Under the pieces are notes generated by a model. That model was not told where the DNA came from, did no database searches, and worked only from the letters and a program-made list of their open reading frames with translations. DNA of 21,775 nucleotides from Armatimonadota bacterium. Lineage in GTDB: Bacteria > Armatimonadota > Zipacnadia > Zipacnadales > UBA5352. Below, piece by piece: positions 1,837 to 9,055 of this stretch; the stretch's first letter is position 1; every line of letters begins with the position of its first letter. The position numbers and the translations under genes were made by a program. The DNA lies in the NCBI GenBank assembly GCA_034722055.1, contig JAYENL010000273.1:1-21775 (forward strand), given 5' to 3'.

Positions 1837-3033
1837 TCAGTCCGGTGCTGCCAGCGCGTCGGCGATGATCTCCACGGCCCGCTCGCACTGCTCCGCAGTG
1901 ACGATCAGCGGCGGAGCGATGCGCACCACCTCAGGCGCCACGGCGTTGAGGACCAGCCCCCGCGTGAAGCATTCGTGCACCACGCCGCGGGCCCTCTCCT
2001 CCGACAGCGCCACGCCCAGCAGCAGCCCCTTGCCGCGCACGTGATCCACCATCGGCGAGCTCTCCGCCAGCGCGGCGAGGCGCTCGGTGAGCAGCTCTCC
2101 CATGCGCGCGGCGTTCTCGACCAGGCCTTCGTCCTCGATGATGGCAATCGTCTCCAGCGCCGCCGCGCAGGCCAGGTGATTGCCGCCGAAGGTGGAGGCG
2201 TGGTCGCCCGGCTCGAAGCTGGTCGCCACCTCGCCCTTCGCCAGGCAGGCGCCGATGGGGAAGCCCCCGCCCAGCGACTTCGCCAGCGTCATGATGTCGG
2301 GCTGGATGCCGGAGTGCTCGTATGCGAACCACGCGCCGGTACGGCCCATGCCCGTCTGCACCTCGTCGAGGATCAGCAGGATGCCCCGCTCGTCGCACAG
2401 CCGCCGCACATCGCCGAGGTAGCGCTCCGCCGGCACGTTGATGCCGCCCTCGCCCTGGATCGGCTCCAGCATCACCGCGCAGACGGTGTCATCGACCGCC
2501 TCCTCCAGGGCCTCGATGCTCCCGAACTCCACGTAGCGGAATCCCGACGGCAGCGGCGCGAAGGGCTTCTGGTACTTGGGCTGTCCGGTGGCGGTGACCG
2601 TCACGAGCGTGCGGCCGTGGAAGGACCTCTGTGCAGTGACGATGGTGCGCTGTCGGGGCGCCAGGTTCTGCCCCGCCCACTTGCGGGCCAGCTTGATGGC
2701 AGCCTCGTTCGCCTCCGCGCCGGAGTTGCAGAGGAAGCTGCGCTGCGCGAAGGAGATCTCCGCCAGCTTCTCGGCCAGCCGCGCCTGGGGGCCGATGACG
2801 AAGAGGTTCGAGGTGTGCATGATGCGCCCGGCCTGCTCGCAGATGGCGCTGACGAGCCTGGAGTGGCCGTGGCCCACCCCGCAGACGGCGATGCCGGCCA
2901 GGAAGTCCAGGTACTCCCTGCCGTCGGCGTCGATGAGCGTGGCGCCGTCGCCGTCAACGAAGGCCACCGGCGGCGGGGCGTAGGTGGGCATGAGGTACTG
3001 CTTCGCCAGCGCGGCCATCTCCTCATTGGTCAT
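1837..3033 (-). CDS. argD: Acetylornithine aminotransferase (class III PLP-dependent)
   Basis: YLDFLAGIAV, NSGAEANEAAIKLAR, SFHGRT, LEPIQGEGG, DEVQTGMGRTG, TLAKSLGGG (PLP Lys) and HASTFGGN. Located in the arg cluster. Confidence 0.95.
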   Translation of the reverse strand: MTNEEMAALAKQYLMPTYAPPPVAFVDGDGATLIDADGREYLDFLAGIAVCGVGHGHSRLVSAICEQAGRIMHTSNLFVIGPQARLAEKLAEISFAQRSFLCNSGAEANEAAIKLARKWAGQNLAPRQRTIVTAQRSFHGRTLVTVTATGQPKYQKPFAPLPSGFRYVEFGSIEALEEAVDDTVCAVMLEPIQGEGGINVPAERYLGDVRRLCDERGILLILDEVQTGMGRTGAWFAYEHSGIQPDIMTLAKSLGGGFPIGACLAKGEVATSFEPGDHASTFGGNHLACAAALETIAIIEDEGLVENAARMGELLTERLAALAESSPMVDHVRGKGLLLGVALSEERARGVVHECFTRGLVLNAVAPEVVRIAPPLIVTAEQCERAVEIIADALAAPD

Positions 3034-3207: not shown

Positions 3208-4086
3208 TCATTCCCCCCGCACCATCGTCCCTATGCCGGCCTCGGAGAACAGCTCGATGAGCAACGAGTGCGGCCGCGAGCCGTCGATCATATGGGCCCG
3301 CTGCACCCCGCCCTCCACCGCCTCGACGCAGCTCTGCAGCTTCGGGATCATCCCCGAGCTCACCGCCTCCGACTCCAGCATTCCTCGGGCCTGAGAGAGC
3401 GTCAGCTCGCTGATGAGCGTGGACGGATCATCCCTGTCGCGCAGCAGCCCCGGCACGTCGCTGAGCGTCACCAGCTTCTGCGCGCCCAGCTCCACCGCCA
3501 GCGCGGCGGCCGCGTGGTCGGCGTTGATGTTCAGCGGCTCTCCGGTCTCCGACATGCCGATGGGCGAGAGGACCACAATATGTCCGGCGTCGATGAGATC
3601 GTGGATCAGCTCCGGGTGGATGTCCGTGACCTCCCCCACGTGGCCCAGGTCGGCGCCGTTCGGCCCCTTCATGCGGCGGGCGGCCAGCGTGCGGCCGTCC
3701 CGGCCGGAGATGGCCACGGCAGAGACGCCGGCCGCCTGGATGTGCGCCGCGATGTCCTGGCCGACGCTGCCCACCAGCACCATCTCGGCGATCTCCATAG
3801 TGGCATCGTCGGTCACGCGCAGGCCCTCCACGAACCTCGGCTCCAGCCCCAGGCGGTCCATCATCGCCGAGATCTTCCTCCCGCCCCCGTGCACCACCAC
3901 CGGCCGCATCCCCACGTAGTGCAGCAGCGCCAGGTCGGTGCATACGCTGCGCTTGAGGTCCTCGTCCACCATCGCCGCGCCGCCGTACTTCACCACGATC
4001 GTGGCGCCGCGGAACTGCCGGATGTAAGGCAGGGCCTCGATCAGCACCTCGGCCCGCATGGCAACGTCGTTGCTGTGCTCGTCCAT
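3208..4086 (-). CDS. argB: Acetylglutamate kinase
   Basis: LIEALPYIRQFRG, VVKYGG, VVHGGG, GLRVTD, NINADH and GMIPK. The N-terminal helix and C-terminal ELFS..GIGTM resemble the arginine-sensitive type. Confidence 0.97.
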   Translation of the reverse strand: MDEHSNDVAMRAEVLIEALPYIRQFRGATIVVKYGGAAMVDEDLKRSVCTDLALLHYVGMRPVVVHGGGRKISAMMDRLGLEPRFVEGLRVTDDATMEIAEMVLVGSVGQDIAAHIQAAGVSAVAISGRDGRTLAARRMKGPNGADLGHVGEVTDIHPELIHDLIDAGHIVVLSPIGMSETGEPLNINADHAAAALAVELGAQKLVTLSDVPGLLRDRDDPSTLISELTLSQARGMLESEAVSSGMIPKLQSCVEAVEGGVQRAHMIDGSRPHSLLIELFSEAGIGTMVRGE

Positions 4087-4099
4087 CTCCGCTATGCCC

Positions 4100-5308
4100 T
4101 CACTTTGCGTTGAGCTCCACGTACTGCGGCGTCATGTCACAGGTCCAGCACACCGCCGTCTCCCTGCCGAGTCTGAGATCGATGTCAATCTGGACCTCGT
4201 CGGCGGACATCACAGCGGCGGCGGCGTCCTCGTCGTAGTCCACCGGCCCTCCGGCCTCAAAGGCCAGCACCCCGCCGATGGCGATGGCGCAGCGGGCCGG
4301 ATCGACCTCGACGCCCGATGCCCCCACCGCCGCGGCGATGCGGCCCCAGTTGAAGTCCTCGCCGAAGATGCAGGTCTTCACCAGGTTCGAGCGCGTGACA
4401 GCCCGGCCGACCGCGCGCGCCTCCTGCCAGCTCTCGGCGCCGGTGACGCGCACCTGCACGAACTTGCTGGCGCCCTCGCCGTCGCGGGCGATCTTCTTCG
4501 CCAGGTCCCGGGTGACGTAGTCCAGCGCCGCTGCGAAGTCCCGGAAGGGCGTGCTCTCGGGGTCGCTGATCGCCTCGTTGCCGGCCTGGCCGTTCGCCAG
4601 CGCGATGACCGTGTCATTGGTGCTCATGTCCCCGTCCACGGCGATGCAGTTGAAGGAGCGCTCGACCGCCTCCCGCAGCGCTCCCTGCAGCACCGGCGCC
4701 TCGATGGCCGCGTCGGTGCAGATGAAGCACAGCATGGTGGCCATGTTCGGGCAGATCATCCCCGCGCCCTTGGCGATGGCGCCGATGCCCACGCGTCGGC
4801 CACCAATCTCCAGCTCCACCGAGCACTCCTTGGGCACCGTGTCGGTGGTCATGATGGCCCTGGCGGCATCCCGCGCGCTGTCGCGGGAGAGGCCGACGCA
4901 CAGGTCGGGGATGGCGGCCTCGATCGCCTCCATGGGAAGCTGCGCGCCGATCCGCCCGGTGGAGCAGACCAGCGTCTCATCCACCGGGACCTGCGTCTCC
5001 CGCGCCGCCAGCTCCACCATTCGTTCGGCGTTCTCCATCCCTCGCACGCCGGTGGCGGCGTTGGCATTGCCGGAGTTGGCGATGACGGTCCGTGCGGAGC
5101 CGTCCGCGACGTGGCGCTCGGTGACGTAGGTCGGGGCCGCCCGGAAGCGATTGGTGGTGATGGTGGCCGCGGCGCTGGCCGGGGCGCGGGAGTGCAGCAG
5201 CATCATGTCCAGCCCCTGGGGCTTGATCCCCGCGGCCGCCGCTGCAGCCACGAAGCCGTCCGCCACCAGCAGACCGCCCTCGATGACGTCGAATGCCGTC
5301 TCTGCCAT
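4100..5308 (-). CDS. argJ: Glutamate N-acetyltransferase / ornithine acetyltransferase
   Basis: NSGNANA, STGRIG, IMTTD, KGAGMICPNMATML (autoproteolysis Thr), DGDMSTND, DGEGASK and NWGR. Start placed at MAETAF (5308). Confidence 0.97.
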   Translation of the reverse strand: MAETAFDVIEGGLLVADGFVAAAAAAGIKPQGLDMMLLHSRAPASAAATITTNRFRAAPTYVTERHVADGSARTVIANSGNANAATGVRGMENAERMVELAARETQVPVDETLVCSTGRIGAQLPMEAIEAAIPDLCVGLSRDSARDAARAIMTTDTVPKECSVELEIGGRRVGIGAIAKGAGMICPNMATMLCFICTDAAIEAPVLQGALREAVERSFNCIAVDGDMSTNDTVIALANGQAGNEAISDPESTPFRDFAAALDYVTRDLAKKIARDGEGASKFVQVRVTGAESWQEARAVGRAVTRSNLVKTCIFGEDFNWGRIAAAVGASGVEVDPARCAIAIGGVLAFEAGGPVDYDEDAAAAVMSADEVQIDIDLRLGRETAVCWTCDMTPQYVELNAK

Positions 5309-5381
5309 CCCTATCCCTCGCTTCGCGCTGCGCGTCTTCTCGCGCCACACACGGGTCTGCGCTGCCCAGTCCCGTTCGCCG

Positions 5382-6413
5382 CTACGGCCAGATGGCGTAC
5401 CGGCTCAGCGCCGCCGTCTCGTCCACGCCGAGCATCAGGTTCATACACTGCACCGCCGCACCCGACAGCCCCTTCACGAGGTTGTCGATGGCCGAGACCG
5501 CGATCAGGCGGCCGGCGTCGGCGTCCACCGCCAGCCCGATGTCGCAGAAGTTCGAGCCGCTCACGTGCTTGGTGGCCGGGACGCTGCCTGCCGGCAGCAC
5601 CCGCACGAAGGGCTCGCCGGCGTAGAACTCACGGTAGAGCTCCACCGCCTCTTCGAGCGTGATCTCTCGCGTCAGCGTCCCGTAGCACGTGCTCAGAATC
5701 CCGCGGTTCATGGGGATCAAGTGCGGGGTGAAGGTCACCGTCACCGGCTCGCCCAGCGCGGACAGCTCCTGCACCATCTCCGGTCCGTGCCGATGCTGCG
5801 CGATCTTGTAGGCGGCCACGGACTCATTGCACTCCGGGTAGTGGGTGGTCAGCGACAGCGGCGTTCGACCCGCCCCGGAGACGCCGGATTTGGCGTCCAC
5901 GATCACGTCGGGCTCGATGAGGCCATTCACCGCCGCCGGCGCCAGCGCCAGGATGGCTCCGGTGGGGTAGCAGCCCGGCACGGCCGTGAGCTGCGCGGCG
6001 GCGATCTCCTCGCGGTGCAGCTCCGGCAGCCCGTAGACCGCCCGCTCCAGCAGCTCCGGGCGGGGGTGGGCCTCGTAGTACTGCTCGTAGACCGCGGCGG
6101 ACTTCAGCCGGTAGTCGGCCGAGAAGTCCACCACCTGCTTGCCCATCTCCAGCGCCTCGGCCACCAGCTCCGCGCCCACGGCGTGGGGGAGGGCGAAGAA
6201 CATCAGGTCCGCCTCTCCGGCGGCCGCCACGTCCGTCTCCCCGATCTCCATGTCGATGGCGCCGGCCAGGTGCGGGTAGAACTCCGCCAGCCGCTGCCCC
6301 ACCGTGGTGTGCCCGCCGAGGTAGACGATCTCCACCTCCGGGTGCTCCAGCAGGATGCGCACCAGCTCCACGCCCCCGTAGCCGGTTGCCCCGAAGACAG
6401 CGACCTTCGTCAC
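5382..6413 (-). CDS. argC: N-acetyl-gamma-glutamyl-phosphate reductase
   Basis: GATGYGG, ALPH, DFSADYRL, YGLPEL, PGCYPT (catalytic Cys), SGVSGAGR and DNLVKG. GTG start. Confidence 0.97.
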   Translation of the reverse strand: MTKVAVFGATGYGGVELVRILLEHPEVEIVYLGGHTTVGQRLAEFYPHLAGAIDMEIGETDVAAAGEADLMFFALPHAVGAELVAEALEMGKQVVDFSADYRLKSAAVYEQYYEAHPRPELLERAVYGLPELHREEIAAAQLTAVPGCYPTGAILALAPAAVNGLIEPDVIVDAKSGVSGAGRTPLSLTTHYPECNESVAAYKIAQHRHGPEMVQELSALGEPVTVTFTPHLIPMNRGILSTCYGTLTREITLEEAVELYREFYAGEPFVRVLPAGSVPATKHVSGSNFCDIGLAVDADAGRLIAVSAIDNLVKGLSGAAVQCMNLMLGVDETAALSRYAIWP

Positions 6414-6460
6414 GCCGATGCACTCCCTCTATCTGCCCTGTCGGTAGGATGCCGGCCGCG

Positions 6461-6509
6461 GCTGCCCGCGTTATCGCCTGGAATGGCGGGCAGCGTCGCC
6501 CGCCTGTAC
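6461..6509. repeat. REP-like overlapping hairpins in the argC 5' region
   Basis: GCTGCCCGC (6461-6469) pairs with GCGGGCAGC (6486-6494). Alternatively GGCGGGC (6485-6491) pairs with GCCCGCC (6498-6504), which is followed by TGTAC. Confidence 0.45.
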
Positions 6510-6562
6510 GGCGACTCCTCGAAGAGCGCGGGGCTTCGTCTCCGCCCCGCCGTGCAGCCGTC

Positions 6563-6604
6563 GTCGTTGCCGTAGCTTGTAGCTCGCAGCTCGTAGCTGC
6601 CGTC
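6563..6604. repeat. Degenerate heptamer tandem element, copy 3
   Basis: GTCGTTGCCGTA (6563-6574, identical to 3148-3159), then TTGTAGC TCGCAGC TCGTAGC TGCCGTC. Confidence 0.65.
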
Positions 6605-6615
6605 GCTGATGTACG

Positions 6616-6642
6616 AAAAAAGCCGCCCCATCGTCGGGCGGC
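6616..6642 (-). terminator. Intrinsic terminator inside the arg operon leader (attenuator)
   Basis: Minus strand GCCGCCC-GACGATG-GGGCGGC-TTTTTT: a 7-bp GC stem plus six U, lying between the promoter and argC in the sense orientation. Confidence 0.85.
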
Positions 6643-6683
6643 ACGGAAAATGCCTCGGTATGGTTGGCACAACCCGTTGTGGC

Positions 6684-6740
6684 CTACCGCCTGGCGCGCA
6701 GGCGTGCGGCGGACCACAACTGGACGGCGCTCGAATGCAT
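6684..6740 (-). CDS. Putative arg operon leader peptide MHSSAVQLWSAARLRARR
   Basis: ATG at 6740 preceded by GGGG, TAG at 6686-6684. Arg codons CGC, CGC, AGG and CGG at positions 13, 15, 17 and 18. The ORF overlaps alternative hairpins and stops 41 nt before the terminator stem. Confidence 0.65.
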   Translation of the reverse strand: MHSSAVQLWSAARLRARR

Positions 6741-6782
6741 CACGTAGCCCCGTGAACCGGTCTCTGTGGCAAGCGCGTCGCC

Positions 6783-6811
6783 AATATACCATATCGCCTC
6801 TAGGCGGTCAA
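6783..6811 (-). promoter_or_regulatory. Sigma70-type promoter of the arg operon
   Basis: Minus strand TTGACC (6811-6806), 17 nt spacer, TATATT (6788-6783), with an extended -10 TG. Confidence 0.75.
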
Positions 6812-6848
6812 GCACGGCTGCGGGGCTCGCAGAGAAGTCACGCGTGAT

Positions 6849-6878
6849 TTGACACCACTCGGAGCGGCTGCGTATAAT
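6849..6878 (+). promoter_or_regulatory. Consensus sigma70 promoter of the SH3-NlpC/P60 gene
   Basis: TTGACA (6849-6854), 18 nt spacer, TATAAT (6873-6878). Confidence 0.8.
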
Positions 6879-6931
6879 CAGCGGTTGGAGCCATACTTCC
6901 CCGACCGGGTGGAGCAAACGGGATCGCAACT

Positions 6932-9055
6932 ATGAAGTCAGCGCGGTTCTGCAGCATCCTGACCGTCATCGCGGTACTATGTGCTCCCGTGGCACATGCG
7001 GGGAAGGTCTACCCCGCGTGGGTGATCCCCCAGTCCCTGAACGTCCGATCCGGCCCCGGCACCGACCGCGACCGCATCGGCTCCCTCACCAGGGGCACCA
7101 AGGTCCACGTCACCGCCTTCGCCAACAACTGGTGCTGGGCGAAGCTCCCCGACGGCCGGTGGGGATGGGTCGCGGAGTGGCTGCTGCAGTTCTCCGCCGA
7201 CAAGGGGCGCAAGCTGGCCGCGGAGGCCGGGGCGGGGGCCTCGTCCACCTCGTCGCAGAGCCCTCCGGCGTGGATTGAGCCCGAGGTCGTCAACGTCCGC
7301 TCCGGCCCCGGCACGCACTACAACAAGCGCGGCCAACTCCGCCGCGGCGATAAGGTCTACATCATCAAGTCCGAGCGAGGCTGGCGCAAGTGCCGCACCC
7401 CGGGCGGCTACGGGTGGATCCGCGAGGACCTGCTGGAGCGCGATGTCGAGCGCGGGCGGCAGCTCGCACGCAGCGCCGGTAGCTCCCACACCACGCCCTC
7501 CAGCGATCTGACGTCCAAGGGCTACGTGGACGGCGACGGCGTGCGCCTGCGCTCCGGGCCCGGCACCAGCTACGGCATCAAGGCCTCGCTCGCGAAGGGC
7601 CAGACGCTCTACGTGACCGAGCACCGCGGCGAGTGGTATCGAGCCCAGGTGCATCATGGACAGGACGGCTGGATACACGAGTCGCTGGTGAAGTTCGAGG
7701 GCCAGTCAGCCGCATCATCGTCCTCATCATCCTCGTCCACCACCAAGGGCTACGTGAATGGCAGTCGGGTGCACCTGCGGGCCGGACCCAGCCTCAATGA
7801 GCGCATCAAGGCCAAGGTCGTGCGAGGCCAGACGCTGTACGTCACTGAGCGCGACGGCGACTGGTACCACGCCCGCGTCCACGGCGGCGATGAGGGCTGG
7901 ATACATGCCTCTCTGGTGAAGCTGGCGGGCGAGTCCGACGAGGCTTCGGGCGTCGCCAAGGCCTGGGTGGCCGGCAGCCGCGTGCATCTGCGCGCCGGCC
8001 CCGGCACCGAGGAGCGCATCAAGGCCCTTGTGGTGGAGGGCCAGACGCTCTACGTCACCGAGACCCGTGGCGACTGGGCGCACGTTCGCGTCCACGGCGG
8101 GGAGGAGGGGTGGATACATGCCTCCCTGGTGAAGTACGCCGGCGAGGAGCCGCCCTCGCAGCCCGCACCCAGCCACACGGGTGAGGACCTGACGGCCTGG
8201 ATCGGCGAGGACGTGGTGAACGTTCGCTACGGCCCCGGCACCGATCATGGCGTCAAGTTCAAGCTCAGCCGCGGCGAGCAGGTCACCGTCGTGGAGCAGA
8301 ACGGCCACTGGTGCAAGGTCAAGGATGCTGACGGGAGCGCGGGCTGGGTAGCGGGCTGGGTGATGAACTTCAAGGGCCCGGACGAGGACCCCACCGCCAC
8401 GGAGGGCTCCCAGGACGTGCCGGTGCGCACCGCCTGGGTGGCGCGCCCGGAGGTGAACGTGCGCTCCGGCCCCGGTACCGACCACGAGGAGGTCGGTGAG
8501 GCCACCCTGGGCACAGAGGTCATCATCCTCGACCGCGAGGGCGACTGGTACAAGGTGGCGCTGGACAACGGCACGACCGGGTACATGGCGAGCTGGCTGC
8601 TGGACACGCGCGCCCAGCGGCGCGTCCGCCAGGGCCTGGAGGGCCGCGCCGGGCCGGCATACTCCGGCACGACGGGCGGGTCGCGGCTGGGCCGGGCCTT
8701 CGTGGACACCGCCATGCAGTACCTTGGCTCCTCCTACGTGCGGGGCGGCTCCAGTCCGTCCGGGTTCGACTGCTCAGGGTTCGTCAGCTTCGTGCTGCGC
8801 CAGCACGGCGTGCGCGTGTCGCGCTCGTCGCGCACGCTCTTCCACGAGGGCACGCCCATCTCGCGCAGCCAGCTTCAGCCCGGCGACGTGGTCTTCTTCC
8901 GCAACACCTATCGCAGCGGCATCTCACACGTGGGCCTGTACATGGGCGGGAATCAGTTCATCCACGCCTCCAACAGGCGCGGCGGGGTGAAGATCAGCTC
9001 CCTGGACTCCGCCTACTACGCGCCGCGCTACGCCGGCGCCCGCCGCATGCGGTAG
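6932..9055 (+). CDS. Secreted peptidoglycan endopeptidase: seven SH3b domains plus a C-terminal NlpC/P60 (C40) domain
   Basis: Signal peptide ending AHA. Seven repeats of (N/R/H)(V/L)R.GP....GW/GY. Catalytic domain Y.RGGSSPSGFDCSGFV, PGDVVFF, HVGLYMG and FIHAS. Confidence 0.93.
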   Translation: MKSARFCSILTVIAVLCAPVAHAGKVYPAWVIPQSLNVRSGPGTDRDRIGSLTRGTKVHVTAFANNWCWAKLPDGRWGWVAEWLLQFSADKGRKLAAEAGAGASSTSSQSPPAWIEPEVVNVRSGPGTHYNKRGQLRRGDKVYIIKSERGWRKCRTPGGYGWIREDLLERDVERGRQLARSAGSSHTTPSSDLTSKGYVDGDGVRLRSGPGTSYGIKASLAKGQTLYVTEHRGEWYRAQVHHGQDGWIHESLVKFEGQSAASSSSSSSSTTKGYVNGSRVHLRAGPSLNERIKAKVVRGQTLYVTERDGDWYHARVHGGDEGWIHASLVKLAGESDEASGVAKAWVAGSRVHLRAGPGTEERIKALVVEGQTLYVTETRGDWAHVRVHGGEEGWIHASLVKYAGEEPPSQPAPSHTGEDLTAWIGEDVVNVRYGPGTDHGVKFKLSRGEQVTVVEQNGHWCKVKDADGSAGWVAGWVMNFKGPDEDPTATEGSQDVPVRTAWVARPEVNVRSGPGTDHEEVGEATLGTEVIILDREGDWYKVALDNGTTGYMASWLLDTRAQRRVRQGLEGRAGPAYSGTTGGSRLGRAFVDTAMQYLGSSYVRGGSSPSGFDCSGFVSFVLRQHGVRVSRSSRTLFHEGTPISRSQLQPGDVVFFRNTYRSGISHVGLYMGGNQFIHASNRRGGVKISSLDSAYYAPRYAGARRMR

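Follow-up and report, generated by a model that had tools for sequence, protein, structure and literature searches.

Arginine codons before a terminator: a candidate leader-peptide attenuator upstream of argCJBD in an order of Armatimonadota without detectable ArgR

In the 21,775-nt stretch of Armatimonadota DNA analyzed here (the window), the arginine biosynthesis operon argCJBD is preceded on the minus strand by a promoter, a short open reading frame (ORF) ending in arginine codons and an intrinsic terminator. The same arrangement recurs in relatives upstream of argC or, in some cases, argG. We consider it likely, with a probability of roughly 80%, that this leader is a ribosome-dependent transcription attenuator that reads the level of charged Arg-tRNA. 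Its assignment as an arginine-codon leader-peptide transcription attenuator, first made in a preliminary description of the window, is well supported by the comparative evidence. Judged from the sequence, the leader appears to combine the testable features of a classical attenuator, a firm antiterminator excepted. From these features we infer that the leader is translated, that the ribosome stalls on uncharged Arg-tRNA with antitermination as the result, and that transcription terminates upon ribosome release.

Read along the minus strand, the leader begins with a sigma70-type promoter (TTGACC-17-TATATT with TG before the -10 box; 6783..6811) that would start transcription near 6777. Two promoter-like sites occur within 6000-7500, compared to 0.1 +/- 0.3 in shuffled sequences, and TTGAC as well as the T, A and T of the -10 box are unchanged in 25/25 aligned leaders. 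A weak Shine-Dalgarno (SD)-like GGGG (6748..6751; GGAG in most family members) is located 7 nt upstream of the ATG of the leader ORF, which comprises 18 codons and a TAG stop (MHSSAVQLWSAARLRARR; 6684..6740). Arginine is encoded at codons 13, 15, 17 and 18, and the ORF ends in AGG CGG TAG. The control codons R15-A16-R17-R18 (CGC GCC AGG CGG; 6687..6698) can also form a hairpin of 3-4 bp with a 3-nt loop. Further upstream in the ORF lies the 5' strand of a protector hairpin (segment 1, 6711..6726; family consensus CGACC.N.TGTGGCC). Its partner, segment 2 (6670..6684), consists of GGCCACAAC followed by GGGTTG, and the 3' part of this segment is also the outer strand of a proposed antiterminator. 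The inner antiterminator strand, AGGCAT (6650..6655), has GTGCC at 6644-6640 as its partner. The intrinsic terminator (6616..6642) is formed by a 7-bp stem, GCCGCCC/GGGCGGC (6642-6622), and six T extending to 6616. Promoter, 18-codon ORF and terminator, about 200 nt upstream of argC, are thus positioned as given in the preliminary description. The same is true for its segments 1, 2 and 3, and its 1:2 helix is present in the predicted fold, where the start of the ORF (6740-6733) additionally pairs with 6657-6650.

The genes that follow on the minus strand each score above the NCBIfam cut-off: argC (N-acetyl-gamma-glutamyl-phosphate reductase, 5382..6413; TIGR01850, 429.7 bits, cut-off 233.6), argJ (ornithine acetyltransferase, 4100..5350; TIGR00120, 438 bits, cut-off 298), argB (acetylglutamate kinase, 3208..4086; TIGR00761, 251 bits, cut-off 151) and argD (acetylornithine transaminase, 1837..3033; TIGR00707, 502 bits, cut-off 410). 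Between terminator and argC, the minus strand carries short imperfect repeats of the GCAGCTAC/GAGCTAC/CGACG type (6605-6560). In relatives (L002, L005, L010) this spacer has other heptamer-like repeats, and its length ranges from about 30 to more than 200 nt across loci. On the plus strand, a perfect TTGACA-18-TATAAT promoter (6849-6878), divergent from the arg promoter, precedes the gene for a 707-aa multi-SH3/NlpC-P60 protein (6932-9055), an arrangement also visible in the family's loci.

Arginine codons are common by chance in GC-rich DNA, a caveat raised from the outset and justified: in this genome, with a G+C content of 68% and a genome-wide Arg share of 8.3%, four of them are little proof alone. 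The window leader as a whole also folds no better than shuffled sequences (z -0.62). The window alone is a weak case, which is lifted above chance by conservation: promoter, short ORF and the same terminator are found upstream of argC in 25/30 related loci (30 of 40 matches were compared). All five loci without the element belong to one family (f4), in which 2/17 genomes carry it. A covariance model of the leader core gave matches in 44/79 genomes of the class, and every match with E<1e-4 falls within the window's order; among 151 genomes of the phylum, two weak matches occurred outside it (E 0.002 and 0.009). At loci outside the model-building set the element is present in 21, one of which (L204, before argC) was missed by the model. 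A weak class-level match (L199) with a terminator and neither ORF nor arg gene was discarded as false, and L203, a fragment of 59 nt where a contig ends, was too short to count. The named carriers are Armatimonadota (Ca. Zipacnadia, a class of this phylum); their records are filed under Armatimonadota, Armatimonadia, Ca. Zipacnadia, candidate division WS1 or simply bacterium.

Two leader copies in relatives precede argG instead of argC, with NCBIfam support for L193. In the genome of the window no second copy was found (the next covariance-model match has E 0.015), and neither of its two argG-like genes above cut-off (G000:C279, G000:C130) has such a leader. In one related genome (G008) there are two argC loci (L015/L191); the leader at one is of the type found in the genome's own family and that at the other of the type found in family f6, due to either transfer or bin contamination (6%). 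In a further leader (L201), which is possibly decayed, a palindrome is inserted into the spacer and the ORF reaches its late stop after 28 codons.

The association with arginine genes was also recovered by a pattern of arginine codons plus terminator for which neither ATG, stop nor gene was required. This pattern gave 72 matches among GTDB genomes. The 33 with a short ORF, which overlap the 46 leaders compared below, all precede argC (31) or argG (2); the remaining 39, from unrelated taxa, have neither short ORF nor arg gene. Among 50 metagenome matches, 19 showed an ORF and an arg gene, three an ORF at a contig end and one argC with its upstream region missing, and 27 had neither. Conversely, an ORF with an arginine-rich tail followed by a terminator was found in 0/48 regions upstream of other argC genes in the phylum and in 1/77 from other bacteria (3/80 were too short). 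These control scans covered about 550 nt upstream and would miss leaders placed before an earlier operon gene. The strict ORF-plus-terminator rule recovers 29/46 leaders; 15 of the 17 failures are owing to the T tract of the terminator.

The short ORF bears the signature of a coding sequence. In all 46 leaders, which come from related genomes and are not independent trials, an ATG-initiated ORF is present in the frame of R-x-R-R, while the other two frames yielded a closed ORF at the same spot in 1/92 cases. At least three arginines are located near the stop in 46/46 leaders. Starting at the first conserved Arg, arginine makes up 145/242 residues (60%) up to the stop, compared to 26/609 (4.3%) in the part preceding that Arg. 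The first codon of the motif, R1, is CGC in 40, CGT in three, CGA in two and GGC in one of the 46 leaders; for R3 the counts are CGC 29, CGT 7, CGG 4, AGG 3, CGA 2 and TGC 1. Taken together, changes at R1 and R3 are synonymous in 21 cases and non-synonymous in two, and both leaders that lost one conserved arginine carry another one adjoining the stop. R2 is AGG in 46/46, a count partly built in as the leaders were anchored on this codon; the column is also invariant in the 25-row alignment. AGG accounts for 8% of the arginine codons in this genome. The residue x is nearly always Ala or Val, and no Lys was seen at the three conserved arginine positions among the 46 leaders. As the sensor, the preliminary description had favored the first arginine at codon 13; an arginine is present there in just 1/46 leaders, so the conserved sensor is R15-x-R17-R18 instead.

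The stop follows 2-5 codons after AGG in 45/46 leaders and lies 39-44 nt from the terminator arm in 37/46 (41 nt in 21). From AGG to the terminator the distance is 47-59 nt (83 in one leader), and the stop spacing holds across families with AGG at 50, 53 or 59 nt. Counted from the first ATG, the peptides are 13-29 aa long, and outside R-x-R-R their sequence is not conserved across families; the motif D-Q-L-W-P of the window's family coincides with the protector strand. An SD-like motif was found in 25/46 leaders, an ATG at most 10 nt from the -10 box (leaderless-like) in 10/46, and neither in 11/46. The leader ATG follows the -10 box by 7-9 nt in L020-L022, L024, L025, L028, L029, L174, L177 and L191. 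By these start signals, translation of the peptide appears to be leaderless in two families and at a second locus with argC in one f1 genome, and SD-led in others.

A second leader in the same genome provides a comparison for the arginine codons. It is located at about 36590-36790 on the minus strand of G000:C242 (L455, L456; relatives L457-L471), upstream of a paralogue of the ribose-phosphate diphosphokinase gene prs. It consists of a promoter, an ORF of 21-28 codons rich in His and Tyr with a P-R-R-R-like end, and a CGCCGCGG terminator. Of 26 loci, 17 were examined: the leader is present at 16/16 that belong to the family and absent from the one that does not. The CCGCGGCG / P-R-R-R codons of its ORF are complementary to the terminator arm, and changes in its arginine codons are non-synonymous in 7/7 cases, as expected for RNA pairing; these codons therefore look structural. 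The arg leader, with its 21:2 ratio in favor of synonymous changes, differs in this respect, which argues that its arginine codons are kept as arginine. The presence of the prs leader argues that the lineage uses leader-peptide attenuators, and control of PRPP supply by His/Tyr would be unusual. Further promoter-plus-terminator leaders occur at G000:C186 near 7113, C316 near 22004 and C211 near 1691, in front of genes that, by their N-termini, we take to be valS, purA and rpsL. Among the matches listed, a permissive search of the genome for further attenuators yielded mostly noise.

In the window's family, segment 1 pairs with GGCCACA..GGTCG just past the stop, by which the arginine codons come to lie in a 30-nt loop. 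In this protector, 82% of cells are paired and 3/14 pairs show a double change, a degree of covariation not above column shuffles (56/500 reach it). Aligning argC upstream regions, proposed earlier as a check, bore out a conserved ORF with terminal arginine codons but no protector covariation above such shuffles. Different sequences fill the protector role in the other families. The real ORF pairs with the RNA past the stop better than shuffled ORFs in 42/46 leaders and frees the terminator arm more in 34/46. Across 25 leaders, the hairpin of the R15-x-R17-R18 codons is paired in 93% of cells with no double change, and the terminator stem in 97.7% with one double change.

With the ORF masked, the consensus fold is a two-part antiterminator, in which GUYG.GC pairs with GC.CGAC and GGCAU with RUGCC and which covers the 5' arm of the terminator. 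Its helices are 93% paired with no double change. The AGGCAT strand is paired in 100% of cells in 15 family members and in 93% in 25 leaders, and GGCA is found in the spacer of 43/46. The window adopts this fold at -11.8 kcal/mol when the ORF is masked; its arm binding is below the shuffle mean (2.5 vs 4.9), and real spacers bind the terminator arm better than shuffled spacers in 28/46 leaders only (mean z 0.29). This consensus antiterminator is located further downstream than GGCGGTAGG, the strand originally assigned to that role. As GGCGGTAGG comprises the last arginine codons and the stop, it would be buried within a ribosome stalled at any conserved arginine, given the footprint size that we assume. 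In the 2:3 helix proposed along with it, one pair (a wobble base) is broken in 11/15 family members, while its four GGCG:CGCC pairs are invariant; the helix was set aside after this count.

In equilibrium folding the terminator prevails in almost all of the states listed once its 3' arm has been made, so that the switch must be kinetic. We modeled the ribosome as a mask with a chosen footprint that extends 9 or 13 nt beyond the A site. Under these assumed footprints, the mean binding of the terminator arm was 4.9 kcal/mol both when the ribosome stood at AGG and when it stood at the stop, and 2.8-3.4 after release. Release lowered it from 4.9 to 2.8 kcal/mol, with a drop of more than 0.5 in 32/46 leaders and the reverse in 8. 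Between the stalled and the at-stop position, no difference emerged with the +9 nt footprint (15 leaders up, 19 down) and a slight one with +13 nt (25 up, 17 down). The folding model hence suggests that the switch may separate a stalled from a released ribosome, not a stalled one from one at the stop. Constrained folding for each ribosome position, as recommended in the preliminary description, distinguished the first two states but gave the same mean arm binding for stalled and at-stop ribosomes. The accompanying idea that a ribosome at the stop masks segment 2 and causes termination found no support in this model, as the at-stop ribosome did not free the terminator arm. Despite the equal folds, the fixed spacing between stop and terminator indicates that the position of the stop matters.

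A mechanism consistent with these observations would operate as follows. The leader ORF would be translated behind RNA polymerase. When charged Arg-tRNA is scarce, the ribosome would wait at the last arginine codons, which the protector hairpin holds in its 30-nt loop. Pairing between the ORF and the RNA past the stop would then be prevented, GGYYG and GGCAU would bind the 5' arm of the terminator, and the operon would be transcribed. With ample arginine, the ribosome would finish and leave, ORF and post-stop RNA would form one long hairpin, the terminator arm would be freed, and transcription would end near 6616. Being rare, the AGG codon probably makes the response sharper.

An attenuator reading charged Arg-tRNA has to be weighed against an arrest peptide, in which the nascent chain stalls the ribosome at or near the stop on free arginine, ornithine or citrulline, like SpeFL, TnaC or the fungal arginine attenuator peptide, and sets termination in place of hungry codons. 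The position of R-x-R-R directly before the stop would fit, as would the same fold for stalled and at-stop ribosomes, and AGG CGG is also found in Salmonella orf34/speFL in the accessible text of PMC6386406. We regard an arrest peptide as improbable because conservation over the length of the tunnel is absent, R-x-R-R alone being common to families whose peptides differ in length, and because D-Q-L-W-P falls on the protector strand. Moreover, stalling should mean ON here, so a stall induced by the product would switch a biosynthetic operon in the wrong direction. It is quite improbable that the arginine codons are a by-product of G+C-rich structure, with a riboswitch or a protein-bound attenuator acting and the ORF incidental. 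The base composition of the genome, the small conserved hairpin formed by the codons, the ability of GGCG to pair with the terminator arm, and the P-R-R-R of the same family's prs leader, which can arise via structure, agree with a constraint at the RNA level; the invariant AGG and the near-constant Ala/Val codon are weak sides of the coding argument that fit it too. The almost exclusively synonymous change at R1 and R3, the compensating arginine gains, the single frame and the fixed stop spacing speak against it, and the conserved structure is too small for an aptamer and has no Rfam match.

The R-A-R of the window fits the Arg-x-Arg type of motif tied to antibiotic-induced stalling in the accessible part of PMC8632094, and the leader might accordingly be a general sensor of translation stress or macrolides that reports slowed ribosomes, not arginine. 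This is very improbable, since the element precedes argC or argG only, wherever the downstream gene could be read, and since Lys never replaced the three arginines in the leaders compared. A premature terminator without regulation, or a small-RNA gene, that merely lowers operon expression would be in line with the dominance of the terminator at equilibrium among the states listed and with the weak antiterminator; such an explanation is barely credible, as it leaves the conserved arginine-coding frame, the fixed stop spacing and the argG copies unexplained.

For control by ArgR or a T-box, as opposed to a leader peptide, arginine synthesis is the pathway usually cited. The search for a genome-encoded ArgR, another suggested check, was carried out and agrees with the attenuator: PF01316 gave no match in the genome of the window, which is 93% complete, and TIGR01529 was found in 0/67 genomes of the order. 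In the phylum, 4/201 genomes have ArgR-like matches, all below cut-off and in one other family; the attenuator is confined to one order. No Rfam family, leader families included, and no T-box matched the window at cut-off. Eight sub-threshold matches, with no T-box among them, were treated as chance, including RcsR1 (16 bits vs 60), which we take to be the rhizobial trp attenuator RNA. For the tRNA set of this genome, six Arg anticodon types are predicted; ACG occurs alongside GCG, and CCT is represented by two genes.

We lean towards the wider proposition that this order, in which ArgR was not detected, controls argCJBD, and in some members argG, by a leader attenuator that switches on ribosome residence versus release at a terminal R-x-AGG-R, is kept across changes between SD-led and leaderless translation, and represents an alternative to ArgR missing from the searched literature. 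Among the entries listed for that literature, and in the accessible parts of PMC2965389 and PMC7815308, we found no description of a leader-peptide attenuator for arginine synthesis; earlier predictions could be contained in supplements (PMC2965389, PMC8632094) or in attenuation surveys available by subscription. If true, the proposition would fill the arginine gap among attenuators, explain how the pathway is regulated in an order without detectable ArgR, and extend leader-peptide attenuation to Armatimonadota. It would also provide a compact part of about 170 nt of RNA.

Classical attenuators (trpL, hisL, thrL, leuL, ilvL, pheL) combine a promoter, an ORF with codons for the end product, a protector, a competing antiterminator, an intrinsic terminator and a biosynthetic operon. 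The arg leader shares the promoter, the end-product-codon ORF, an ORF-overlapping protector, the intrinsic terminator and the biosynthetic operon, with a putative antiterminator. It differs in that arginine would be sensed, the control codons are the last sense codons and the antiterminator comes in two short pieces; the folding model points to release instead of at-stop masking, and some families apparently lack an SD. The same pathway is governed by ArgR in E. coli (accessible text of PMC6345581), and arginine T-boxes are known elsewhere, with no arg RNA element in Actinobacteria according to the available part of PMC1262725. In contrast to these ArgR/AhrC and T-box systems, the order of the window yielded no ArgR and the window no T-box match. 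Upstream ORF candidates were reported for cysS, hflX and aroF, along with a carA motif (accessible part of PMC8632094), and Pseudomonas carA is attenuated by pyrimidines (accessible part of PMC4997734). The short ORF of the arg leader with its consecutive AGG CGG resembles orf34 (speFL) of Salmonella and E. coli, which is likewise short, lies upstream, carries the rare codons AGG CGG in succession and senses arginine by ribosome stalling. According to the same available text (PMC6386406), speFL differs in controlling ornithine decarboxylase via Rho, RNA decay and translation and in having 34 codons, a conserved peptide core and no intrinsic-terminator switch. In Staphylococcus aureus, the leader peptide rbfL detects a shortage of arginine by means of rare AGA/AGG codons and, under limitation, blocks a biofilm regulator's ribosome binding site (accessible part of PMC13009471); its output is OFF and translational, whereas that of the arg leader is predicted to be ON, transcriptional and biosynthetic. 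speFL and rbfL are the published arginine-codon leaders that we found, and both control other genes by other means.
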